A stretch of DNA of 64,000 nucleotides, from contig OZ024743.1 of assembly GCA_964016885.1 (NCBI GenBank), positions 93,930,001-93,994,000 of the forward strand. Direction: 5' to 3'. Made by a program: the position numbers and the translations under genes. Source of the stretch: Eledone cirrhosa. Its lineage: Eukaryota. The notes under the pieces were generated by a model, which did not search any database, was not told the origin of the DNA, and worked only from the letters and a program-made list of their open reading frames with translations. The stretch's first letter is position 1; each line of letters starts with the position of its first letter. This document shows, piece by piece, positions 1 to 24,600 of the stretch.

Positions 1-1059
1 GTCGGCGTCCATCAGGGCTCTGTTCTCAGTCCACTACTATTTATTATTGCCCTTCAGGCTATAACAGAGGAGTTCAAGACAGGCTGCCCATGGGAACTCC
101 TATACGCAGACGACCTGACACTCATAGCGGAATCAATGGCCGAGCTAGAGAAGAAATTCCAAACATGGAAGCACGGCCTAGAGTCAAAAGGACTTAAAAT
201 TAACCTGGCTAAGACCAAAGTACTAGTTTGTAGGAAAGAAAACAAGGCGGCGGTCCCTTCGGGGAAATGGTCGTGCTCGGTGTGTAGGAAAGGCGTAGGT
301 AGAAACTCCATTTTATGTCCTAAATGCAAAGTATGGGTGCATAAAAGATGTAGTGGGATCACAGGTAAGCTAACTAAGAACATAGATTTTACATGTGGCC
401 GGTGCTCTGGTGCAATAAGTAGCAGCAAGTGCCCACAAACTACTAGCTCTTTCAATTGCGCAGAGGGTTCTATAGAAATAGTGGACAGCTTCCGTTACCT
501 GGGCGATAAAATCAGCAGTGGGGGAGGGTGCTCTGAAAGTACTGTAGCTAGAGTCAGAACTGGTTGGAAAAAGTTCAGAGAGCTTATACCACTATTAGCT
601 GCTAAAGGGTTCTCACTAAAAATGAAAGGCAGGTTGTACGATGCCTGCATACGAACAGCAATGCTGCATGGCAGTGAGACCTGGGCATTGTGTGCAGAGG
701 ATATACGCAGACTAGAGAGGAACGAAGCTTGCATGCTCCGCTGGATGTGTAACAGTAATATACGTGAACGGCAAAGCATAAACGAACTAAGGAATAAATT
801 AGAGATAAGAGGGATCAGATGTTGTTTACTCGAGAGAAGGCTACGTTGGTATGGACACGTGATGCGCATGAAAGTCGATAGCTGTATAACAAAGTGCAGG
901 GCAATAAAGATAGACGGTAGTCACGGAATAGGCAGACCTAGAAAAACCTGGGACGAGCTGATAAACTCCGACATCACACACTTACACCTCTCCAAGACAA
1001 TGTCACTGGACCGAGACCTTTGGCGGTACTCAGTAACAGAGAAGACCCGCCTTACCTAA
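1..1059 (+). CDS. LINE reverse transcriptase ORF (5'-partial) with embedded C4HC3 zinc finger
   Basis: Uninterrupted frame of 352 codons plus stop, containing QGSVLSP and YADD motifs upstream of the ORF-track ATG at 136. Confidence 0.9.
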   Translation, partial: VGVHQGSVLSPLLFIIALQAITEEFKTGCPWELLYADDLTLIAESMAELEKKFQTWKHGLESKGLKINLAKTKVLVCRKENKAAVPSGKWSCSVCRKGVGRNSILCPKCKVWVHKRCSGITGKLTKNIDFTCGRCSGAISSSKCPQTTSSFNCAEGSIEIVDSFRYLGDKISSGGGCSESTVARVRTGWKKFRELIPLLAAKGFSLKMKGRLYDACIRTAMLHGSETWALCAEDIRRLERNEACMLRWMCNSNIRERQSINELRNKLEIRGIRCCLLERRLRWYGHVMRMKVDSCITKCRAIKIDGSHGIGRPRKTWDELINSDITHLHLSKTMSLDRDLWRYSVTEKTRLT

Positions 1060-3033: not shown

Positions 3034-3339
3034 CTTTTCAAGATTATTGTTCACATTAAACATCTCTTCAGCATCAGGATGAAAGATTCCAAATATAGAA
3101 GCCTGACTTAAACCAATTTTTAATTCTTTCATAACCATGCGGATCAGCCATTTCTGTTCAATTGCAGATGTGTTACGCAAAAGGTAAAGCATTCTTTCAT
3201 GTACAACCTCTTTTTTCTTGCTGGTATTGGAGACTGCAATATCATCCAGGCATTTGTTTACATGTGAAACACTCAGGCTACCATCTTTGGGACAGCGATT
3301 CTTCAGCACATAGTAAGCTATATCAGCAAAGTCATTGTT
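3034..3339 (-). CDS. LIG4: DNA ligase IV, coding exon 4 (DNA-binding domain)
   Basis: [16 protein letters not shown]...[45 protein letters not shown]; acceptor ttacttgccAG, donor AAG|GTCAGT; 306 nt. Confidence 0.95.
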
Positions 3340-4249: not shown

Positions 4250-4351
4250 AGAACCAGATTCCTTTTTTGTATTATAATTCAGAAGTTTAGAAGCATCTGG
4301 ACTATTCTTTCCAAGACATAACACACTAATCAGAAGTTTTGCAAATGTATG
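4250..4351 (-). CDS. LIG4: DNA ligase IV, coding exon 3
   Basis: HTFAKLLISVLCLGKNSPDASKLLNYNTKKESGS; acceptor tctcttacttgcAG, donor GTAAGT; 102 nt. Not in the ORF track. Confidence 0.9.
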
Positions 4352-6773: not shown

Positions 6774-6851
6774 CTCTTTGATTCCATATGCAACACGCTC
6801 GTTTTCCAGATGAGGGAGTAAAAGCCGCATTGCTGGGTAAAAAGAATCATT
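6774..6851 (-). CDS. LIG4: DNA ligase IV, coding exon 2
   Basis: [26 protein letters not shown], matching the conserved LIG4 segment [12 protein letters not shown]...AYGIKE; acceptor ttatttcAG, donor GAG|GTATTA; 78 nt. Confidence 0.95.
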
Positions 6852-9353: not shown

Positions 9354-9542
9354 TGTTTTCTTGTCTTTATGCAGTTTCTCATGTTCCTGTCGCCATCGTT
9401 CAAGAAATAGCTTCAAAATTTGCCTTTTTTTCTCAGTTCCTTGACTTCTCTTAATTTTCTCCAGTAGACCTGTTAATTCTCCAAAATGGACTTTATCAGA
9501 AACTTTAGTTTCAACAGGTAAGCCTGACTGGGCAACATCCAT
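9354..9542 (-). CDS. LIG4: DNA ligase IV, coding exon 1 (start codon); the exon probably extends to 9558
   Basis: MDVAQSGLPVETKVSDKVHFGELTGLLEKIKRS...FLERWRQEHEKLHKDKKT; donor GTGAGT; 189 nt, in phase with exon 2. Pyrimidine tract plus CAG acceptor lies 16 nt upstream of the ATG. Confidence 0.9.
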
Positions 9543-9769
9543 AGTAATATATTGTAATCTGGGTACAGAAAGAAATAGAGATTATTATCAACATTACATT
9601 CACTAACGATTTGTTTTCTCTCTCCCAATACCCCCCCCCCCCCTCACTTCAATTCCGTCTGTCTCAACTATCATAATTGTGCATCCTTTCACCTGTTCAT
9701 TTTATCATTGCTCTCTCTCATCTATTCACCTTCTTAGTCTTGTTGCTTTGACTGACTGCAGATAAATTA

Positions 9770-11736
9770 TGAGAGTTGTTAGGTTGCACTGGTTTGCATG
9801 GATTCCCTTGACTTTCTGTCGCCATCCAATTTTATTGTTCAATAGGGGAATTGTTAGGTCGCTCTGCTAGCATGGATTCCCTTGACTTTCTGTTATCCAA
9901 TTTTATTGTTCAATAGGGGAATTGTTAGGTCGCTCTGCTAGCATGGATTCCCTTGACTTTCTGTTATCCAATTTTATTGTTCAATAGGGGAATTGTTAGG
10001 TCGCTCTGCTAGCATGGATTCCCTTGACTTTCTGTTATCCAATTTTATTGTTCAATAGGGGAATTGTGAGGTCGCTCTGCTAGCATGGATTCCCTTGACT
10101 TTCTGTTATCCAATTTTATTGTTCAATAGGGGAATTGTTAGGTCGCTCTGCTAGCATGGATTCCCTTGACTTTCTGTTATCCAATTTTATTGTTCAATAG
10201 GGGAGTTGTTAGGTTGCTCTGCTAGCATGGATTCCCTTGACTTTCTGTTATCCAATTTTATTGTTCAATAGGGGAATTGTTAGGTCGCTCTGCTAGCATG
10301 GATTCCCTTGACTTTCTGTTATCCAATTTTATTGTTCAATAGGGGAGTTGTTAGGTTGCTCTGCTAGCATGGATTCCCTTGACTTTCTGTTATCCAATTT
10401 TATTGTTCAATAGGGGAATTGTTAGGTCGCTCTGCTAGCATGGATTCCCTTGACTTTCTGTTATCCAATTTTATTGTTCAATAGGGGAATTGTTAGGTCG
10501 CTCTGCTAGCATGGATTCCCTTGACTTTCTGTTATCCAATTTTATTGTTCAATAGGGGAATTGTGAGGTCGCTCTGCTAGCATGGATTCCCTTGACTTTC
10601 TGTTATCCAATTTTATTGTTCAATAGGGGAATTGTTAGGTCGCTCTGCTAGCATGGATTCCCTTGACTTTCTGTTATCCAATTTTATTGTTCAATAGGGG
10701 AGTTGTTAGGTTGCTCTGCTAGCATGGATTCCCTTGACTTTCTGTTATCCAATTTTATTGTTCAATAGGGGAGTTGTTAGGTCACTCTGCTAGCATGGAT
10801 TCCCTTGACTTTCTGTCGCCATCCAATTTTATTGTTCAATAGGGGAATTGTGAGGTCACTCTGCTAGCATGGATTCCCTTGATTTTCTGTTGTCATCCAA
10901 TTTTATTGTTCAATAGGGGAATTGTGAGGTCACTCTGCTAGCATGGATTCCCTTGACTTTCTGTCGCCATCCAATTTTATTGTTCAATAAGGGAGTTGTT
11001 AGGTCACACTGGTTTGCATGGATTCCCTTGACTTTCTGTTGTCATCCAATTTTATTGTTCAATAAGGGAGTTGTTAGGTCACACTGGTTTGCATGGATTC
11101 CCTTGACTTTCTGTTGTCATCCAATTTTATTGTTCAATAAGGGAGTTGTTAGGTCGCACTGGTTTGCATGGATTCCCTTGACTTTCTGTTGTCATCCAAT
11201 TTTATTGTTCAATAAGGGAGTTGTTAGGTCACACTGGTTTGCATGGATTCCCTTGACTTTCTGTTGTCATCCAATTTTATTGTTCAATAGGGGAGTTGTT
11301 AGGTCACACTGGTTTGCATGGATTCCCTTGACTTTCTGTTGTCATCCAATTTTATTGTTCAATAAGGGAGTTGTTAGGTCGCACTGGTTTGCATGGATTC
11401 CCTTGACTCTCTGTTGTCATCCAATTTTATTGTTCAATAAGGGAGTTGTTAGGTCGCACTGGTTTGCATGGATTCCCTTGACTCTCTGTTGTCATCCAAT
11501 TTTATTGTTCAATTAGGGAGTTGTTAGGTCGCACTGGTTTGCATGGATTCCCTTGACTCTCTGTTGTCATCCAATTTTATTGTTCAATAAGGGAGTTGTT
11601 AGGTCGCACTGGTTTGCATGGATTCCCTTGACTCTCTGTTGTCATCCAATTTTATTGTTCAATAGGGGAGTTGTTAGGTTGCACTGCTAGAATGGATTTC
11701 CTTGGCTTTCTGTCGCCATCTAATTTTATTGTTCAT
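9770..11736. repeat. 71/74/75-bp minisatellite, ~27 copies
   Basis: 13 units of 71 bp (9841-10763), 3 of 74 bp, then ~10 of 75 bp, plus a leading 75-type unit; core GCATGGATTCCCTTGACTTTCTGT...ATCCAATTTTATTGTTCAATA. Confidence 0.97.
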
Positions 11737-11789
11737 TATATTCGGCAGGTCAGAGGAACTGCAGTTTATGTTGTCACAAATCTACTTGA

Positions 11790-11928
11790 TGTAGGTCTTG
11801 CAAGATTCAAGGTAAACTCACTAATGTAGGTCTTGCAAGATTCAAGGTAAACTCACTAATGTAGGTCTTCCAAGATTCAAGGTAAACTCACTAATGTAGG
11901 TCTTCCAAGATTCAAGGTAAACTCACTA
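11790..11928. repeat. 35-bp tandem repeat x4 (TGTAGGTCTTSCAAGATTCAAGGTAAACTCACTAA), unrelated to the large satellite
   Basis: GTAGG recurs at 11791, 11826, 11861 and 11896. Confidence 0.95.
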
Positions 11929-12018
11929 TTGCTGGGATCATGATAAAATGCACACAGTACACCCTTCAAAATAACTGTTGAGTGAAGAGGATAAAGCAAC
12001 CTCTCTAGTGTTGGTGCT

Positions 12019-12191
12019 CAGTGCTGGATTTAAGACAAATGAGGCCCAGTGCTAGTTAAGTTATGAGGTCCCTTAACTGGGCCCTGAAGGAAGTAGTTCA
12101 CTGTAAAAACAATTTGGCAGGAAGATGGGCCCCATGGCCAACAGGGCCTTGTGCTTATGTACATCTAAGCACAATGGGAAATCCAGCACTG
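12019..12191. mobile_element. MITE (hAT-like ends), 173 bp
   Basis: Perfect 13-bp terminal inverted repeats CAGTGCTGGATTT / AAATCCAGCACTG; the candidate 8-bp TSD matches only 5/8. Confidence 0.65.
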
Positions 12192-12984
12192 TTTATGATA
12201 AAATGTACCCAGTACATTCTGTAAAATATGTTATGTTGCAGATTGGAGGTCATAACATCCTAGAACATTGAGTATTAGAAGGTCACGTCAAGTCACCCGT
12301 TTTCTGTAAAGGAAACATGAAGCGTTATCTACAAATTCCTCATCAATTATCATTATTATTTTCTTTAAAATGTTTCATTTTATTTTATTGACCTTGGGTG
12401 GATATTTGAACTGTACAAAGTTAGGTTACTTGTATTTAATGTGAATTATAAATGAATTCAGATATTAAAATAATATACAATTAAGAAATTATGTATACAA
12501 ATAAACCTAATTTACATTTTAAAAAAAAAGGGAGTTGAAGTTGAAGACACAATTCAATCACACGCCACAAAGGGCGCTGGAGTGCAACATTGCCGTAAGT
12601 CTATGACGCTGGAATAACCAAGCACATAAGCGTGCATCACCTGATATGTTTGTATGGTGAGCCGCCAATAATGACAAAAACTTAGTTGTCAGCGGCACAT
12701 CTCCCCCAAACATATCGAACACCACTGAATTAAAAAATAGTTTGCATAAATAGGAAGAACTGGCAAGAGCAGGAGAGCGTTGTATTAAATTATTGTTTTA
12801 CATAATTTTGCATTCTAAGCCTGGCTGGATTATCTGTTACCTTTGTTCTTCATAGGTATTAGTAATACACTTAGATCAAATATATCGATTAGAACTCCCT
12901 CCTACCTACAAAAAAGTTTCAAGCAATAAATAGATGAGACATTATTCTTTCACACTTCTATTGGGGTTGAAAATATAAATACTA

Positions 12985-13410
12985 GCGATATATTGAGGAG
13001 CCTGGACACAGCTAGCTTCCCATCACTAGAGCCAGCAGGCCTTGACCGCGGTGACAGCAAGCTCCCCGATGGAATCACCCTCACCTATTCGAAGGAGGTA
13101 GATCCCTCATCTGGGACATCATATGTTGTGACTCGTTCTCCACCTCCAACTTAGTCGCTTCAACCACAAACCCCGGTACTGCGGCTCGCAATGCAGAGTA
13201 AAGGAAGACAAAACATATAGCGGGGATTATCCCACCGCTCGCCATCGAGACCTCAGGCGTACTTGGAGTCCATTCGCAAGATCGGAACATCGGCGGCCCG
13301 TCTGAAGAAGGAGTCCCGCGAGGTGAGGTGATTGTTGCAGCCATAGTCCGCAGGAATGCTTTTGCGGTCTCGTCCGCAGGGCGCAGCCCTATCACCGCTG
13401 TGCCCTAGGC
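12985..13410 (+). mobile_element. Decayed CRE-like non-LTR retrotransposon 3' end (restriction-like endonuclease domain)
   Basis: Frameshifted translation LEPAGLDRGDSKLPDGITL / FEGGRSLIWDIICCDSFS...PGTAARNAE*RK...PLAIETSGVLG...AIVRRNA, matching the RPDG...WD...AE..K..KY...ETxG...QRGNA pattern. GC-rich island followed by a T-rich tract. Confidence 0.75.
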
Positions 13411-13988
13411 CAAATCACCCTCCCCATTCTTCTGTGAACCCCAGAGCCCTTACCTTTCCGTTTTTTTTTATATTTTATTTTACATTCCATTCTTTCTTCT
13501 CAATCTAAAAAAATAAATTTCTTTTTTTTATTAAATTGTTTTTACTATTATAATCACCAATTTACTAGTTTTCTAAATAAATAGAAAGATTTAAAAAAAG
13601 TGTAAATAACTGAAATTATTGTCCCATATTATACAAGGCCACCGAAGAGGCAGGATTAGAACAATTCTTTTATGGAAAAACAAACAAACTACAATTTGAT
13701 ATCAATATTTCATGATAAAAATAATTGCAAAAAAAAAAAAAATAATTGCTACTAATAACTAAACATATTGTACATTTATTTCTCCCGATAATCTTGTATA
13801 AGAACATGACTGCCTCTTATGTACTTCCTTGTTTAATATAGAACATGAAGTTTGATAGTTAAAATAGTGTTTTTATTTAGCTTGAATTTATTCCACAGAA
13901 TAGGCAAATTGATAACAGTTTAAAAAAAAATAGAAATAAATACCTTAAAGTGAACGAACCAATCTGTTGGAACGTCAAGATACAATTT

Positions 13989-14384
13989 TCAGACTTTGCT
14001 GCCGATACATAAACATACACCAAGAACAACAAGTAACATGCCAAGTTGTGATTGGCGTGGAATTTTTTCCCCGAGGAAAAAGCCTGTTAAGACTGTAAAC
14101 ACAAATGTGAGGGAGTTAGTTAAGGGCACAGCAATAGAAAGATCAGCTGAAGCTAGAGTTAAATAAAATATAACAGAGCCGCACTGGTTAATTAGGAAAG
14201 TCGCAACATATTTCCAACGAACTACCAGAAACAATAGCTCTGACTTAAGCTGTAGAACGGGGTTTGTTTCTTGTATATTCTGAATGCCAGCACTCGTTTT
14301 CTTTAGTAAAGGATTAGTACAGCCCCATGTTATTGAAACTAACAATAGCCACAAAGCGCTTATTAAAGTGTCTGAAAAAGTCAT
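13989..14384 (-). CDS. TMEM234: Transmembrane protein 234 (small four-TM, DMT/EamA-like fold), intronless ORF, 131 aa
   Basis: Family motifs WGCTNPLLK, FLINQCGS, DLSIAVPLTNSLTFVFT and LGEK; four hydrophobic segments; intact ATG to TGA. Confidence 0.92.
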   Translation of the reverse strand: MTFSDTLISALWLLLVSITWGCTNPLLKKTSAGIQNIQETNPVLQLKSELLFLVVRWKYVATFLINQCGSVIFYLTLASADLSIAVPLTNSLTFVFTVLTGFFLGEKIPRQSQLGMLLVVLGVCLCIGSKV

Positions 14385-14733
14385 CGGAAATTAACTTGTA
14401 TAAAAGATAATTATAAACATTGGATAAATAAAAGATAATTATAAACTTTGGATAAACATAGTAACCGTCGGCGAAGACTCAGAACATGTCCCTTATACAA
14501 ATTAAATCTTTAACCACGTACCTACACACATTCAAATTAACCCTAAATAGAAACCAATAAAGTTCAACTGATATAAGTTTACTTCTAAATAGATGTTAAT
14601 TTGACAAGTGCAGCGTTGACTAAATTGTATTTATTAATTTTACATTTCAATTAATTATTTTTTTAATTAGATAGCAAAACGGGTAGGATGTGTGAAATAC
14701 AGGGAGACAACTCCTGGAGTATCCGGTCTCACA
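14385..14733. promoter_or_regulatory. Inferred bidirectional promoter / 5' UTR region between TMEM234 (-) and NDUFA6 (+)
   Basis: Divergent start codons are separated by 349 bp. Contains a 28-bp direct duplication (14401-14457) and a minus-strand donor-like AG|GTACGT at 14522/14521. No TSS evidence. Confidence 0.65.
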
Positions 14734-14863
14734 ATGGCTACTTCACGCGCTCCAGTTCAGGGTTTGAAGCTTGTGAAACCCATACTGTCTGTCGATGGCA
14801 CTGAGGCTAGGAGAAGGGTTCTTAATTTATACAAGGCATGGTATAGACATTTACCATACATAG
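14734..14863 (+). CDS. NDUFA6: NADH:ubiquinone oxidoreductase subunit A6 (B14, LYR family), exon 1
   Basis: MATSRAPVQGLKLVKPILSVDGTEARRRVLNLYKAWYRHLPYI; good Kozak context acaATGG; donor AG|GTAAGG; phase 1. Confidence 0.95.
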
Positions 14864-15109
14864 GTAAGGGTTTCTTTCTTCTCTACCTACCTTAAAAATG
14901 ATTTCATTTTGTAGGTTGTTGTATGTCATTGTGAAGGACATGTGAAAATGATTATATCTTCTGTTTATATGGAAAAACATTTATTGAAATTATTTTATTC
15001 TATTTTGATACCCTTATATGAGTAAAACTGCTATTTAATACATAGACATAAACTAAATATGAGATTTGACAATCCTATCAACTTATATTAATTGTTGCCT
15101 TGTCAAGGA

Positions 15110-15435
15110 CATGACAGCCTCCTTAGTGTTTGGTGACCAACATGATAAATGCACCCAGTACACGCTGTAAAGTGGTTGGTGATAAGAAAGGCATCCAACC
15201 GTAGAAATCTTGCCAAACAAAAGGATCAAGAGGAACCTCAGTTGTGCCAAAGACATGACAACCTCTCCTGTGCACTTGATGAAGTGTCAACTGTACATAA
15301 AGCGAGACACAGTTCCCTGGCCTGCCTGGGAGATCAGTGTCACCGCTTCAGTACTGATTTGGTCTGTGTAGGCCTGTCAAACCCTTGCTAGCAGGGAAAG
15401 TGGACATTAAAATGACGGCAATGACGATGATGATG
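15110..15435 (+). mobile_element. LINE-3'-end/SINE-like element
   Basis: CACCCAGTACACGCTGTAAAGTGGTTGGTGATAAGAAAGGCATCC...GCTAGCAGGGAAAGTGGACATTAAAATGA-(GAT)n. Confidence 0.7.
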
Positions 15436-15814
15436 AATTGCATGGCTAAGTGGTTTAGAAGTTTGCTCTCAGTCACAAAGTTTCAGGTATGATCCGACTG
15501 CACTTAGGAAGAGTATCTTTTGGTGTGTCCTATGCCTTGTGAGTGAAATTGAGTTGCTGCTGGGTGGTGTGTAGAAACCAATGACAAAATCATTTGGAGG
15601 ATGGAATGGAATAACAGTCTAGCAACTTGGTGTCCAAACAATACTAATTACTAATTCTGATCTATTAAGAAAATTATTTAAATGGGTAAATTATTATATT
15701 ATTGATGCAATATATTTCATGTTGTCATGGTATTTTTCTCAGTCATTTTGAATCATCACAATCTAAATTTCTACACTCTTTGTTGTTTATACATGAATCT
15801 AAAGTGCTTACACT

Positions 15815-16065
15815 CTTGATAGGAAGGGCATCTAGCCGAAGAAAAACTGCCAACAACATAAAATCCAGAAGACTCTTCAGTTATGCCAAAAACATGTCAA
15901 CTTCCCTAGTGTTGCTCCATGATAAAATCCACTTGGTAGAGTGCAAGATTGTATATTGGGCCTCCAGCCCATCTGGCAGTCAGAGGTTCCACTGCAATAC
16001 TGACTCGTCTGTGACATTTTCAGCCCTTGCTAGCTGGGAAACTGAATGTTAAACAATGATGACGA
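15815..16065 (+). mobile_element. LINE-3'-end/SINE-like element, decayed
   Basis: TAGGAAGGGCATCTAGCCG...CCCTTGCTAGCTGGGAAACTGAATGTTAAACAATGATGA. Confidence 0.6.
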
Positions 16066-16161
16066 ATGAATAATCTCTCCATGCATTTGGGTGCTTGATT
16101 TTTAAAAATGATTATTGCTGTTTAGGACTGTTAATTTCATTTTTGTTTATTTCTGTTTCAG

Positions 16162-16277
16162 TGCGTGACTATGATATCCCTATAACTCTCGGTGATTGTA
16201 AAAGCAAACTTCGGGAATCATTTTGGAAAAATCAACATGTTACAGATCTTCGAACCATAGACCTTCTGGTCATTAAG
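16162..16277 (+). CDS. NDUFA6: NDUFA6 exon 2
   Basis: (V)RDYDIPITLGDCKSKLRESFWKNQHVTDLRTIDLLVIK; acceptor ttctgtttcAG, donor AAG|GTACTT; 116 nt restores the frame. Confidence 0.95.
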
Positions 16278-16699
16278 GTACTTTTGGAAATATTTCTTTC
16301 ATAGAAATTAAGCTAGTACAAATCATCTCATTGTTTTTATGTCTGTTTTTCCACTTATATGTATACAGCTATGTTAAAGCAAACACCTTAATTCTATTTT
16401 CCGGCCAAGCCAGCCGGCAGCTCTATTTGCAAATGAGGCTAATCAACCAAAGTACGTAGGTGTCAAAACTATATGTTTTCGCCTATATTGATTTCCAGCA
16501 GAGAGGAGGGCAAAGGAACGTGTTGATAACTACCAGAATCAGAAACGATTATCATCATCAACAGTTACCCACCCTTGCTTCTGCTGGAATCATCAGTTTC
16601 CAAATTTTATAGCTGAAGGCTTTCAAAATGTTTATTCATAAACATACCATACATCACTAGATATACAAGTACTCATACTTACATGCATACATCTATGTT

Positions 16700-16775
16700 A
16701 GAGTGGAGAGATGCTGTGCTGAATAGGACCTGTCCCACCCTTGCAAGCAGGGAAAAGCGGACGTAAAATGATGAT
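16700..16775 (+). mobile_element. Short RTE 3' end (same family as 21367-21650)
   Basis: GTGGAGAGATGCTG...CCCACCCTTGCAAGCAGGGAAAAGCGGACGTAAAATGATGAT. Confidence 0.8.
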
Positions 16776-16786
16776 ATATATATATA

Positions 16787-16867
16787 TCATCATCATCATC
16801 ATCATCATCAACGTTTAACGTCCGTGTTCCACGCTTGCATGGGTTTGGACGGGGGTAGTCCCACTTA
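16787..16867 (-). mobile_element. ~80-nt RTE 3' end within an (AT)n tract
   Basis: Reverse complement appears identical by eye to 1380-1455. Confidence 0.9.
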
Positions 16868-17595
16868 TATATATATATATATATATATATATTCTTTATT
16901 ATGGCTAAGAAGTGAGTCCTGTTACTCTGGATGGAGAGAGAGTCAAATTTAGAAACAGGTCAATGGTACCTTAGAATTGTCTTCATTTAAAGATGAAAAG
17001 TCAACTCATGCCAGTGTGGAATGTGAAATGAGGATGATTAGATTTTTAAAATTTGATAGATGCATGTATAATGTTTCATTTCCAATTTCTTGCACCAAGC
17101 TGACTATGACATGTAAAATTGGGTCTTTGTTGTGTTTTCTAACCTTCTTCAAACTTGAAGTCTCCCCCCCCCCCCCCCCCCCCGTCTAAATTTAGCACTG
17201 TATCCATCTTTAAGTTATACTTACAAGAAAACTTGTACTCAACACTGTAAGCTATCAAAATACTCATGAATTATAAGGCTCATGTTGCTTACAGCAATGA
17301 CTGGTAGTATTCAATACTATTTATTTGTACTTAAGTCAACTGAATCATTTGAAAGTTTCAGGCTCTGATCCTGGACATAGCACAGCATCAGTGTCAGGAT
17401 ATGAACTGTGGAATTATCTTAAATCATTAGTTGTTGAAGTTGACAATGACCTATTTTTACTTGATACTAGACCACCCGTGACCCGTTGGGTCACGTTCAC
17501 TTCAAAATATAAAAAAAAATCATGTTCACTTAAAAATAATTTTTAAATAATTAAAATATACGCAGACATGTATATAATGTGAAACTGGAAGGCCC

Positions 17596-17760
17596 ATATA
17601 TATACGTGTGTGTATGTATATATATAAATGTGTGTGTGTATATACATATATATATATATATGTGGGCATCTGTGATCTGTATACACTGGTCATAGACACA
17701 CACACACACACACATATATATACATACACACACACACTCACATATATATATACACAACAC
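17596..17760. repeat. Mixed (TA)/(TG)/(CA) microsatellite
   Basis: Direct reading. Confidence 0.9.
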
Positions 17761-18037
17761 CACCACCTATCTCTTTCAATCTACTCTCTCACAACCACTA
17801 CCTCTTTCTCTCTATCCTTTTCCCTCTCTCTGTTTATGAAGGTACCCAGAAAAAACTCCATATCTTGGGAAACCGTCCTCCAATTTACGTGAAACTTGTT
17901 TTATTCTATTTGTATTCACATTTCAGGGTCAACTTCCTTTCAAAGTATTTTCCCATTCTGCGCCCTTTTGGCCGTATTACATTACAGACAAGCAAGCAAG
18001 CAATTGCAGAGTTTTAGTAATATATATATATACAAAG

Positions 18038-18283
18038 GAGACTGAGGTTAGCTGGACATGCTCACCGACATCCAGAGTTGACACTGCACTCAGTGCTCCT
18101 GTGGGAGCCCGTACATGGACACACTGGAAGAGGAAGACCAAGGTTAATGTATGTTGATGCCCTAAGGACAGACACTGGTCTATTGGAGATGCAGGACATG
18201 GCAGCGATAATGAGGGACAGAGACTGCTGGAAAGAACTCGTCCATGGATCTCGGGAATTTTACCCACCCTAGATAGATAGATA
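18038..18283 (+). mobile_element. RTE-like LINE 3' fragment (separate subfamily) with (TAGA)n tail
   Basis: RLRLAGHAHRHPELTLHSVLLWEPVHGHTGRGRPRLMYVDAL...AIMRDRDCWKELV, then TAGATAGATAGATA. Confidence 0.85.
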
Positions 18284-18412
18284 ATATAAAGATTTGTGTG
18301 TAAGGTGTATAATTTTTTGTTCCAGATGTATTAGGAGTGATGTAGTGTAGAGCATTGGAGTGGGATAGAAGTGTAGGGTTTTGGACTATGGTCTTATTAT
18401 TTGGGCAACTAA

Positions 18413-18527
18413 GGGTGGTGGATTGGCAGGTAGAGCATCGGACAACAGGCTTGCAACATGTTCTGAGATGAAATCCCAGTGAGGTTAGCTTTGCCTTTCA
18501 TTCTTACTGGGTTGGTAAAGTACCAGA
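18413..18527 (+). mobile_element. SINE (second family), decayed
   Basis: GTTCTGAGATGAAATCCCAGTGAGGTTAGCTTTGCCTTTCATTC...AAAGTACCAG. Confidence 0.55.
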
Positions 18528-18617
18528 CAAAATGGAACAATGTTTTCTGCTGATAGAAGAATTGATCTTGTGATATTTTAGTCTATAAATCCAGTAATAT
18601 TTTTAATTTCTCAGCTA

Positions 18618-18818
18618 TCATCCTTCATCATCACCATTTAACGTCTACTTTCTATGGTAGCATGGATTAGATGAGTTGTCCTATTTTGAGACAAATCAGA
18701 TCAGGTGACCGTCTCTTGCTTATACAGAACTGTTTCTGACTTGGTTTCTATAGCTGAATGCTCTTCCTAATACCAACCACATTTACAACGTGGGCTGTCT
18801 GCTTTTTATCATGGCACC
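18618..18818 (-). mobile_element. LINE-3'-end/SINE-like element
   Basis: (CAT)n-TTTAACGTCTACTTTCTATGGTAGCATGG...TTCCTAATACCAACCACATTTACA. Confidence 0.75.
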
Positions 18819-19009
18819 AAAGAAAATTAGTTTTCTTAATAAAGCTCAAATTTTGTAAAAGACAGTAACGAAACGTGGTGTTTATACCTTTATCAAAAAC
18901 ATTAACCAACAAAGGAGCCTACATACAATTGCTTGGTTTGCTAGAAATATCAATCAAATCCCTCTCAAATTACACTATGATATTTTAAATAGCAAAATAT
19001 ACATTCAGC

Positions 19010-19187
19010 ATGATATACATACTGTAAATGTGGTTGATGTTAGGAAGGGCATCCAGCCATAGAAACCAAGCCCAAATCAGTTCTGTATGAGCAAGAAGTG
19101 GGCATCTGGCCTGGCTTATTTCACAATGGGAGAACTTGTCTAACTCATGCTAGTGTGGAAAAATGGACATTAAATGGTGATGATGAT
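19010..19187 (+). mobile_element. LINE-3'-end/SINE-like element
   Basis: CTGTAAATGTGGTTGATGTTAGGAAGGGCATCCAGCC...GGAAAAATGGACATTAAATGGTGATGATGAT. Confidence 0.75.
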
Positions 19188-19578
19188 ACAACATACGAGC
19201 TGATTCAATTGAAGTCCTTCTGCCTAATTAGGACTGATCTGCAGCTAAATAACATTAACATTAACATTGTAAGTGAAAATGAATTAACTTCAACTGGGAC
19301 TCAAGTGTGCCTCATGGCAGCTCATCTTTGTTCTATTTAGAATATTGTTATGCAAGTCCACCATGTGAGGTGGTAGTGCAGGTGCTATAATGAAAAGCAG
19401 TTAGTTCACTGTGTAAGGTGGTAGTATTGGAGTCACATTAAAATGCTCCCAGTACATGCTGTAAAGTGGTTGGCATTATGAAGGGCATTCCATTAGGAAG
19501 GGCATTCAGTTGTAGAAACCAAGCCAAAAATAGAATGTTTAACCAAGACATGGTTACCTGACCAGTCTAGCCTCAGTA

Positions 19579-19755
19579 CACCTATGCGACCACTTCACAG
19601 AGTGGGCTGGGTGCTTTTTGTTGTGACACCTACATGACCACTTTACAGTGTGGGCTGTGTGCTTTTTATTATGACACCTACATGACCACTTTACAGTGTG
19701 GGCTGGGTGCTTTTTGTTGTGACACCTACATGACCACTGAACAGTGTGAACTGGG
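19579..19755. repeat. 48-bp tandem repeat, ~3.6 copies, related to the LINE 3' UTR subrepeat
   Basis: CACCTACATGACCACTTTACAGTGTGGGCTGGGTGCTTTTTGTTGTGA units; the reverse complement resembles 1207-1255. Confidence 0.85.
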
Positions 19756-19922
19756 GAATGAGGCAAGGGTGTAAAGACGTGGGAGAAGGGTGGAGTGACC
19801 AGAATATGGATGGGAGTGTTAGGGTGTGGGAGGTGTATGGAAGGGGGAATAGTTTAATAATTAGTAGTTTGTATGTGTCAAAAAATTATAGAAGATAACT
19901 AACTTTCTTTTGTTATTTCCAG

Positions 19923-20051
19923 GGTCAAATGGAATTGGTTGAGACCATGGAAGTTTGGAAACAGAGACATCATGTTATGAAATACTTCAAGGACTCTGAG
20001 AACCCTCGACCTACAGATTTTCTATCCAAATTCTATGATGGCAGTGATTGA
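19923..20051 (+). CDS. NDUFA6: NDUFA6 exon 3 (stop codon); spliced product 124 aa
   Basis: [42 protein letters not shown]; acceptor ttatttccAG. Not in the ORF track. Confidence 0.96.
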
Positions 20052-21650: not shown

Positions 21651-24600
21651 CACCACCCCAGTACCAACAATGTGTGACTATATCTCACCACCCCAGTACC
21701 AACAATGTGTGACTGGGATGGTGGGATATAGTCACACATTTTTGGTACTGAGATGGTGGGATATAGTCACACATTGTTGGTACTGAGATGGTGGGATATA
21801 GTCACACATTGTTGGTACTGGTATGGTGGGATATAGTCACACATTGTTGGTACTGGTATGGTGGGATATAGTCACACATTGTTGGTACTGGTATGGTGGG
21901 ATATAGTCACACATTGTTGGTACTGGTATGGTGGGATATAGTCACACATTGTTGGTACTGGGATGGTGGGATATAGTCACACATTGTTGGTACTGGTATG
22001 GTGGGATATAGTCACACATTGTTGGTACTGGGGTGGTGGGATATAGTCACACTTTGTTGGTACTGGGGTGGTGGGATATAGTCACACATTTTGGGTACTG
22101 GTATGGTGGGATATAGTCACACATTGTTGGTACTGGGGTGGTGGGATATAGTCACACTTTGTTGGTACTGGGGTGGTGGGATATAGTCACACATTTTGGG
22201 TACTGGTATGGTGGGATATAGTCACACATTGTTGGTACTGAGATGGTGGGATATAGTCACACATTGTTGGTACTGGTATGGTGGGATATAGTCACACATT
22301 GTTGGTACTGGTATGGTGGGATATAGTCACACATTGTTGGTACTGGTATGGTGGGATATAGTCACACATTGTTGGTACTGGTATGGTGGGATATAGTCAC
22401 ACATTGTTGGTACTGGGGTGGTGGGATATAGTCACACATTGTTGGTACTGGGATGGTGGGATATAGTCACACATTGTTGGTACTGGTATGGTGGGATATA
22501 GTCACACATTGTTGGTACTGGGGTGGTGGGATATAGTCACACTTTGTTGGTACTGGGGTGGTGGGATATAGTCACACATTTTGGGTACTGGTATGGTGGG
22601 ATATAGTCACACATTGTTGGTACTGAGATGGTGGGATATAGTCACACATTGTTGGTACTGGTATGGTGGGATATAGTCACACATTGTTGGTACTGGTATG
22701 GTGGGATATAGTCACACATTGTTGGTACTGAGATGGTGGGATATAGTCACACATTGTTGGTACTGGGGTGGTGGGATATAGTCACACATTGTTGGTACTG
22801 AGATGGTGGGATATAGTCACACATTGTTGGTACTGGTATGGTGGGATATAGTCACACATTGTTGGTACTGGTATGGTGGGATATAGTCACACATTGTTGG
22901 TACTGGGATGGTGGGATATAGTCACACATTGTTGGTACTGGTATGGTGGGATATAGTCACACATTGTTGGTACAGGTATGGTGGGATATAGTCACACATT
23001 TTGGGTACTGGTATGGTGGGATATAGTCACACATTGTTGGTACTGGGATGGTGGGATATAGTCACACATTGTTGGTACTGGTATGGTGGGATATAGTCAC
23101 ACATTGTTGGTACTGGTATGGTGGGATATAGTCACACATTGTTGGTACTGGGATGGTGGGATATAGTCACACATTGTTGGTACTGGTATGGTGGGATATA
23201 GTCACACATTGTTGGTACTGGTATGGTGGGATATAGTCACACATTGTTGGTACTGGGGTGGTGGGATATAGTCACACATTGTTGGTACTGGTATGGTGGG
23301 ATATAGTCACACATTGTTGGTACTGGTATGGTGGGATATAGTCACATTGTTGGTACTGGTATGGTGGGATATAGTCACACATTGTTGGTACTGGGGTGGT
23401 GGGATATAGTCACACTTTGTTGGTACTGGGGTGGTGGGATATAGTCACATATTGTTGGTACTGGTATGGTGGGATATAGTCACACATTGTTGGTACTGGT
23501 ATGGTGGGATATAGTCACACATTGTTGGTACTGGGATGGTGGGATATAGTCACACATTGTTGGTACTGGTATGGTGGGATATAGTCACACATTGTTGGTA
23601 CTGGTATGGTGGGATATAGTCACATTGTTGGTACTGGTATGGTGGGATATAGTCACACATTGTTGGTACTGGGGTGGTGGGATATAGTCACACTTTGTTG
23701 GTACTGGGGTGGTGGGATATAGTCACACATTGTGGGTACAGGGATGGTGGGATATAGTCACACATTGTTGGTACTGGTATGGTGGGATATAGTCACATAT
23801 TGTTGGTACTGGTATGGTGGGATATAGTCACATATTGTTGGTACTGGTATGGTGGGACATAGTCACACATTGTTGGTACTGGGATGGTGGGATATAGTCA
23901 CATATTGTTGGTACTGGTATGGTGGGATATAGTCACATATTGTTGGTACTGGTATGGTGGGATATAGTCACACATTGTTGGTACTGGGATGGTGGGATAT
24001 AGTCACATATTGTTGGTACTGGTATGGTGGGATATAGTCACATATTGTTGGTACTGGTATGGTGGGATATAGTCACACATTGTTGGTACTGGGATGGTGG
24101 GATATAGTCACACATTGTTGGTACTGGGATGGTGGGATATAGTCACACATTGTTGGTACTGGTATGGTGGGATATAGTCACATATTGTTGGTACTGGGTT
24201 GGTGGGATATAGTCACATATTGTTGGTACTGGTATGGTGGGATATAGTCACATATTGTTGGTACTGGTATGGTGGGATTTAGTCACATATTGTTGGTACT
24301 GGGATGGTGGGATATAGTCACATATTGTTGGTACTGGTATGGTGGGATATAGTCACATATTGTTGGTACTGGTATGGTGGGATATAGTCACACATTGTTG
24401 GTACTGGGGTGGTGGGATATAGTCACACATTGTTGGTACTGGGGTGGTGGGATATAGTCAAATATTGTTGGTACTGGTATGGTGGGATATAGTCACACAT
24501 TGTTGGTACTGGGATGGTGGGATATAGTCACACATAGTTGGTACTGGGATGGTGAGATATAGTCACACATTGTGGGTACTGGTATGGTGGGATATAGTCA

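Follow-up and report, generated by a model that had tools for sequence, protein, structure and literature searches.

A spliced RNA contig joins the TMEM234 and LIG4 genes of the octopod Eledone cirrhosa in a probable bicistronic mRNA

Bicistronic mRNAs and the TMEM234-LIG4 locus

In human, STREMI-SLC35A4 and the 14 conserved bicistronic transcripts of one study are reported to unite two unrelated older genes in one spliced mRNA, and in the STREMI-SLC35A4 type a small membrane protein comes first and one of the open reading frames (ORFs) is intronless (PMC13303939). The 159 dicistronic pairs described in Drosophila likewise yield a mature mRNA with two ORFs, and most of these pairs consist of unrelated genes (PMC4528330). 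Here we analyzed a 64,000-nucleotide (nt) stretch of the Eledone cirrhosa genome (assembly GCA_964016885.1, contig OZ024743.1, positions 93,930,001 to 93,994,000 of the forward strand; hereafter the window), in which an intronless TMEM234 gene lies upstream of LIG4, the gene of the DNA ligase of non-homologous end joining (NHEJ). We observed that an assembled RNA-type contig carries the complete TMEM234 ORF spliced onto the start exon of LIG4. The two ORFs in this spliced RNA are complete and separately conserved, and they are fused neither by frame nor by read-through. The pair would be a further animal bicistronic mRNA, unusual in having the NHEJ ligase downstream. It is probable that this bicistronic mRNA is the main LIG4 transcript, that both proteins are translated from it, and that LIG4 is reached by leaky scanning and reinitiation. 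The pairing implies no functional link between the two proteins.

The locus resembles the described systems in part. As in SLC35A4, which is reported to be translated behind 11 upstream ORFs (uORFs), one of them of 102 codons, many AUGs precede the second cistron (PMC4705651). Unlike STREMI-SLC35A4, the intronless ORF is the upstream one and encodes a widespread annotated protein of 131 amino acids, the downstream ORF is spread over 18 coding exons and encodes a DNA-repair enzyme, and the host is a mollusc (PMC13303939). The 61-nt gap between TMEM234 and LIG4 falls inside the range of -34 to 319 nt given for the exclusively polycistronic loci of Drosophila; neither Lig4 nor TMEM234 was found, under the fly gene names used, in 12 supplementary files, one file lying outside the search (PMC4528330). 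SNURF-SNRPN, GDF1/CERS1 and RPP14/HTD2 are animal bicistrons that involve other genes than TMEM234 and LIG4. All three are conserved across vertebrates. For their downstream ORFs, leaky scanning or reinitiation is the assumed route, as we propose here (PMC4705651). In KSHV, the herpesvirus associated with Kaposi's sarcoma, the ORF35-ORF36 mRNA also has two short uORFs before its first cistron, and a uORF, the second, can divert ribosomes past ORF35 to ORF36 via linear scanning; that system is viral and its mechanism proven, ORF35 has one internal AUG vs five in TMEM234, and for our locus it serves as an analogy only (PMC3561293). The polycistronic loci of green algae share with ours a short inter-ORF distance, out-of-frame ORFs and a weak upstream start; there the ratio of the two proteins is set by the upstream Kozak context, a weak AUG followed by a strong one is tied to leaky scanning, and both proteins, a common promoter mark and a common poly(A) tail were demonstrated, whereas the present locus is known from a contig and from sequence (PMC7896298). 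A trans-spliced operon of the nematode or kinetoplastid type was ruled out, as the LIG4 acceptor is joined in cis to the TMEM234 exon. No paper reporting a TMEM234-LIG4 pair was found in a search that covered neither subscription journals nor bioRxiv supplements and judged papers by title and the start of the abstract.

RNA evidence for the splice and the genes it joins

An initial annotation, made from the letters alone, had proposed that TMEM234 and LIG4 share one transcription unit, and all of its coordinates that we checked are present in the sequence. These include a pyrimidine tract with a CAG acceptor 16 nt upstream of the LIG4 ATG, the intronless TMEM234 ORF (13989-14384, minus strand), the 349-bp gap between the start codons of TMEM234 and NDUFA6 (14385-14733), donor-like sites at 13944/13943 and, within that gap, at 14522/14521, and two AATAAA hexamers on the minus strand (13892 and 13877, together 13872-13892). 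The region is covered by contigs of four sequencing runs from one study (X1 to X4), none of which is recorded as RNA. X4 was classed as RNA by its spliced joints, since the first NDUFA6 intron is cut out GT..AG in X4 and in neither of two DNA runs (X1 and X3).

An X4 contig of 2913 nt at depth 22.4 places its letters 2374-2913 on 13944-14483 (540 letters, no mismatch) and leaves the genome exactly at donor 13944. A contig of equal size and depth places letters 2169-2375 on 9354-9560, with 205 letters and no mismatch on the LIG4 side; the letters that hang over behind 9560 equal window 13946-13975, and those before 9354 belong to the next LIG4 exon. The contig pieces overlap by two letters at the joint because AG is common to both sides. 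Of the 762,587 X4 contigs, a single one covers the LIG4 start exon, and it also carries the TMEM234 exon. The DNA runs X1 and X2 span the LIG4 start stretch in one unspliced piece, and DNA contigs pass both 13944 and 9558 unspliced. The single transcription unit and the junction 13944>9558, which puts the whole TMEM234 ORF into the LIG4 leader, were thus borne out. The first exon of the shared transcript (13944-14483, minus strand) holds a 5' untranslated region (UTR) of at least 99 nt, the TMEM234 ORF and 45 nt past its stop; the 5' end lies at 14483 or further upstream. The intron (9559-13943, minus strand; 4385 nt) has GT-AG ends.

RNA was required for this assignment, because sequence alone offers 15 similar donors, not above chance: with a 71-nt tandem array excluded, 15 sites in 9560-14740 match the donor consensus at 7 or more of 9 positions, two of them scoring 8 and 13944 scoring 7. 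A site proposed near 12905 is not among the 15. Two other forms suggested by the initial annotation did not appear in X4. The leader 14522>9558, which would skip TMEM234, went unseen, the sole X4 contig on the LIG4 start exon having the TMEM234 exon, and it may exist as a rare form. A stand-alone TMEM234 mRNA, made by a choice between splicing and polyadenylation, was not seen either: the bin depth over 13887-14035 is 13.8 and the spliced contig alone predicts 13.83. Contigs show neither the start nor the end of a transcript and drop rare forms, so that this agreement does not amount to absence of such an mRNA. The stretch 13887-13943, which has no X4 contig cover, counts as no evidence. A depth-2.3 X4 contig at 13589-13886 is unjoined to the TMEM234 exon.

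The TMEM234 ORF (396 nt, 131 amino acids) matches Pfam PF10639 (E 1e-39), and its protein is 81% identical to the Octopus bimaculoides counterpart. TMEM234 is described as an orphan membrane protein of the DMT clan with unknown function (PMC9333335). TMEM234 and LIG4, the latter by its exon 4, each have a single match in the 3.0-Gb genome, counted among the best candidates. The LIG4 start exon (9354-9558, minus strand) begins at 9558, because the pyrimidine tract and CAG end at 9559; it has a 16-nt leader and its ATG at 9542-9540. LIG4 was modelled from 80 kb of adjoining DNA and follows TMEM234 on the same strand with coding exon 2 at 6774-6851 (joined to 9354 in the X4 contig), exons 3 at 4250-4351 and 5 at 2142-2246 from the gene model, exon 4 at 3034-3339 (85% identical to Argonauta LIG4) and exon 6 at 1483-1589, which carries the catalytic KxDG motif. 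Twelve more exons lie beyond the window start, as far as 27 kb. The 18 coding exons encode an intact protein of 909 amino acids with the KxDG motif kept, identical at 724 of 907 positions to the Argonauta protein and at 747 of 907 to that of Octopus sinensis (80-82%). The LIG4 part of the X4 contig (2373 nt) agrees within 2 nt with the first 15 modelled exons (2371 nt). The contig terminates at the end of LIG4 exon 15, 22.6 kb past the window start, which is the divergence point of the Octopus LIG4 isoforms; those of O. sinensis and O. bimaculoides switch there to short C-termini without the last residues of the BRCT region. This suggests that the end of exon 15 is a shared alternative 3' end.

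NDUFA6 (14734-20051, plus strand; exons 14734-14863, 16162-16278 and 19924-20051; 124 amino acids, with PDB matches) stands head to head with the TMEM234-LIG4 unit. The 349-bp gap probably holds a divergent promoter common to NDUFA6 and TMEM234, in which transcription would begin. The TMEM234-LIG4 intron contains interspersed repeats and two tandem arrays, one of a 71-nt unit (9773-11735) and one of a 35-nt unit (11789-11928). A multi-copy repeat in the same intron (12990-13590) reaches a DNA depth in the thousands; at 13342-13499 within it, X4 has a short contig with a depth of 3.2. A 35-nt satellite begins at 21712, and the composition profile suggests that it fills the remaining 42 kb of the window (21712-64000). 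An ORF of 307 codons with a PHD finger (136-1059, plus strand) sits in a LIG4 intron; we take it to resemble the 3' part of an RTE-type long interspersed nuclear element.

Relatives and origin of the pair

In O. bimaculoides the accessions of LIG4 (XP_014772644.1) and TMEM234 (XP_014772656.1) are 12 numbers apart, which suggests that both genes are on the same scaffold and does not imply adjacency. Six residues ahead of the start Met the O. vulgaris LIG4 models part from one another, as would fit use of the same acceptor. By eye their N-terminal extension resembled a product of the TMEM234 3' UTR (best placement ending at 13829), and this candidate was rejected, as 240 of 300 shuffles scored equally. 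An Octopus-like TMEM234 protein, P0074, has Trp at the stop position and an extension of 21 amino acids (window 13926-13991); the Trp could reflect adenosine-to-inosine recoding, polymorphism or error. The extension aligns gap-free to the 45 post-stop bases (13.6 bits, reached by none of 5000 shuffles). In Acropora, LIG4 and TMEM234 are placed on contigs of differing length. The top 10 TMEM234 cluster representatives include no named mollusc and are deuterostome where named. Among non-octopod TMEM234 loci, 10 of the 46 with at least 700 nt downstream have an ORF of at least 100 amino acids within 400 nt, a count taken without a control and including 4 loci of the same type.

As to origin, two unrelated genes would have become adjacent, and TMEM234 would have replaced a non-coding first exon of LIG4. 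The "gene symbiosis" model, with the two ORFs in exchanged roles, would be satisfied if LIG4 had captured a retroposed TMEM234 as its leader (PMC13303939). TMEM234 is intronless here, without a second copy in the genome, and it is intronless too in three DNA-like loci (L013, L015 and L017); the rearrangement of an already intronless TMEM234 is therefore as possible as retroposition. Two of these loci show TMEM234 2.3-3.5 kb upstream of a same-strand ORF with a thioredoxin-like 2Fe-2S domain (L013:4974-8469 and L015:520-5204), presumably an NDUFV2-like subunit of complex I. At another locus (L016:262-1867), a TMEM234 ORF is followed after 118 nt by an ELAC1/RNase Z ORF (361 amino acids; PDB 3ZWF, E 1e-96); the gap contains neither AATAAA nor ATTAAA, and the first AUG context is weak and the second strong. 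By its layout L016 is a candidate for an independent TMEM234-first bicistron in another eukaryote.

Translation of LIG4 from the shared mRNA

Within the mRNA 61 nt separate the TMEM234 stop from the LIG4 AUG (45 + 16), and the LIG4 frame is +1 to that of TMEM234. Judged by the Kozak rule for animals in general, used here in place of an octopus-specific matrix, the TMEM234 start is weak (-3 C, +4 A) and the LIG4 start strong (-3 A, +4 G). Counted along the mRNA, LIG4 has the ninth AUG. uORF1 (14439-14459, minus strand) has 6 codons and A at -3; uORF2 (14391-14420, minus strand) has 9 codons, a weak context and a stop 6 nt before the TMEM234 AUG. The KSHV uORF2 reportedly overlaps the ORF35 start, unlike this one. 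TMEM234 contains five internal AUGs, whose ORFs are 4, 5, 16, 13 and 11 codons long; the stops of the last three lie 47-61 nt ahead of the LIG4 AUG.

We propose that individual mRNA molecules carry both ORFs, and that ribosomes would bypass the TMEM234 AUG with its weak context, whether they leak past it or miss it after translation of uORF2. The bypassing ribosomes would then pass or briefly translate the internal ORFs of 4-16 codons and start at the strong LIG4 AUG. Reinitiation after short uORFs is described as possible hundreds of nucleotides downstream (PMC10275272). For ribosomes that have translated all 131 codons of TMEM234, poor reinitiation is predicted, and the two frames cannot be fused by read-through. 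Bypass is the most likely route to LIG4. The shared mRNA would yield little LIG4, and this yield would be subject to translational control. By analogy with the described systems, scanning with reinitiation is the mechanism that we infer here.

Several observations weigh against this reading. Of the eight AUGs that stand ahead of that of LIG4, four have a purine at -3, and the strong context of the AUG at 14328 counts against efficient scanning. An AUG-poor upstream ORF is a feature of leaky-scanning bicistrons. Depletion of out-of-frame AUGs is absent from TMEM234, where 4 are seen vs 3.6 expected (P 0.75). A reinitiation limit of 55 codons has been given, by which reinitiation after TMEM234 would be poor (PMC4705651). 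The RNA evidence comes from a single RNA-type run of one study with library type unrecorded, possibly the source project, and a contig over two ORFs proves no single molecule; starts inside the TMEM234 ORF could be hidden in it. In the relatives, P0074 continues like unspliced window DNA (p 0.017) and not like LIG4 (p 0.79); a Glu codon at the donor-equivalent position means that the GT donor is absent there, if the two are colinear. The upstream LIG4 exons of O. vulgaris have no significant match here, 240 and 216 of 300 shuffles scoring as high. LIG4 or NDUFA6 was found near none of 79 non-octopod TMEM234 loci from metagenomes, many of them short and none identified as mollusc. Given this mixed evidence from O. 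bimaculoides, P0074 and the 79 loci, sequence comparison suggests that the TMEM234-LIG4 linkage is probably octopod-level and that donor 13944 may be lineage-specific.

Alternatively, the long form could serve mainly TMEM234, and LIG4 could come from shorter transcripts that begin within the TMEM234 ORF or have a less frequent leader, for instance 14522>9558. We consider this unlikely: the LIG4 start exon has no other contig in X4, and the one it has continues without a break to 14483, a point that lies 99 nt upstream of the TMEM234 AUG. It stays alive because the eight upstream AUGs show no depletion and the AUG at 14328 is strong. The O. vulgaris models of LIG4, in which what appears to be one acceptor takes two distinct upstream exons, also speak for it, as do the loss of rare forms from contigs and the report that only 45 of the 159 Drosophila dicistronic loci are exclusively dicistronic (PMC4528330).

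Splicing at 13944 might also compete with polyadenylation at 13892/13877, giving either the bicistronic or a TMEM234-only mRNA. The AATAAA pair lies within the intron, 52 and 67 nt past the donor, the donor itself is merely a 7/9 match, P0074 in a relative appears to continue unspliced, and monocistronic forms of the 5' gene in Drosophila are reported to end usually at an upstream poly(A) site (PMC4528330). AATAAA is frequent in AT-rich DNA, with 7 copies on the minus strand in 11736-14800, and we judge such a switch to be distinctly unlikely; it would be compatible with a bicistronic main transcript as a minor layer.

Still less probable is that LIG4 is reached without scanning, by internal entry in the U/A-rich gap or by a late +1 frameshift in TMEM234 that would yield a membrane-anchored fusion. 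Internal entry is held to be common among fly dicistrons by the FlyBase authors (PMC4528330), and the LIG4 frame has no stop in the 53 codons that precede its AUG, a stretch that extends over the junction into the end of TMEM234 (13946-14086, minus strand) and contains no AUG. The 61-nt gap and the +1 frame bar a fusion by stop read-through, the octopod LIG4 proteins share the start Met, and gap and leader fold weakly (-22 and -13 kcal/mol, computed without a shuffle control). Among 701 longer candidates there was no TMEM234-LIG4 fusion protein, the 1 match being without a ligase domain, and the 7 longer TMEM234 matches among the 150 representatives listed include no LIG4 fusion and one BEACH-domain fusion. 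An assembly chimera or rare read-through noise, conceivable for a short-read contig from a single run, is highly improbable given a joint on GT..AG at a site predicted beforehand, no mismatch on either side, and the TMEM234 exon as the sole upstream partner seen for an exon that requires one.

The bicistronic reading, in which LIG4 is translated as the second cistron, can be taken further, tentatively and against our own expectation: octopods may make their sole NHEJ ligase only behind TMEM234, with a uORF-gated bypass raising LIG4 under translational stress, and TMEM234 may be a recurrent lead cistron placed independently before housekeeping enzymes (LIG4 here, ELAC1/RNase Z in L016).

The locus may also point to an annotation blind spot. 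The NCBI sets hold octopod LIG4 in four species, and the TMEM234 cluster has three members, none from current NCBI; NCBI-derived LIG4 was found for O. sinensis, O. vulgaris and Argonauta, yet the TMEM234 search and cluster gave none for them. Missing octopod TMEM234 entries are expected if TMEM234 is filed as 5' UTR. The mRNA offers a natural test case of how ribosomes get to a start codon that is the ninth AUG and follows an ORF of 131 codons. Placed on one mRNA behind a complete conserved gene, LIG4, a core enzyme of double-strand-break repair, is predicted to reach low, translation-limited levels. This bears on NHEJ capacity and on the outcomes of editing by clustered regularly interspaced short palindromic repeats (CRISPR) in cephalopods, in which edits of TMEM234 or of its 3' end would also hit LIG4.

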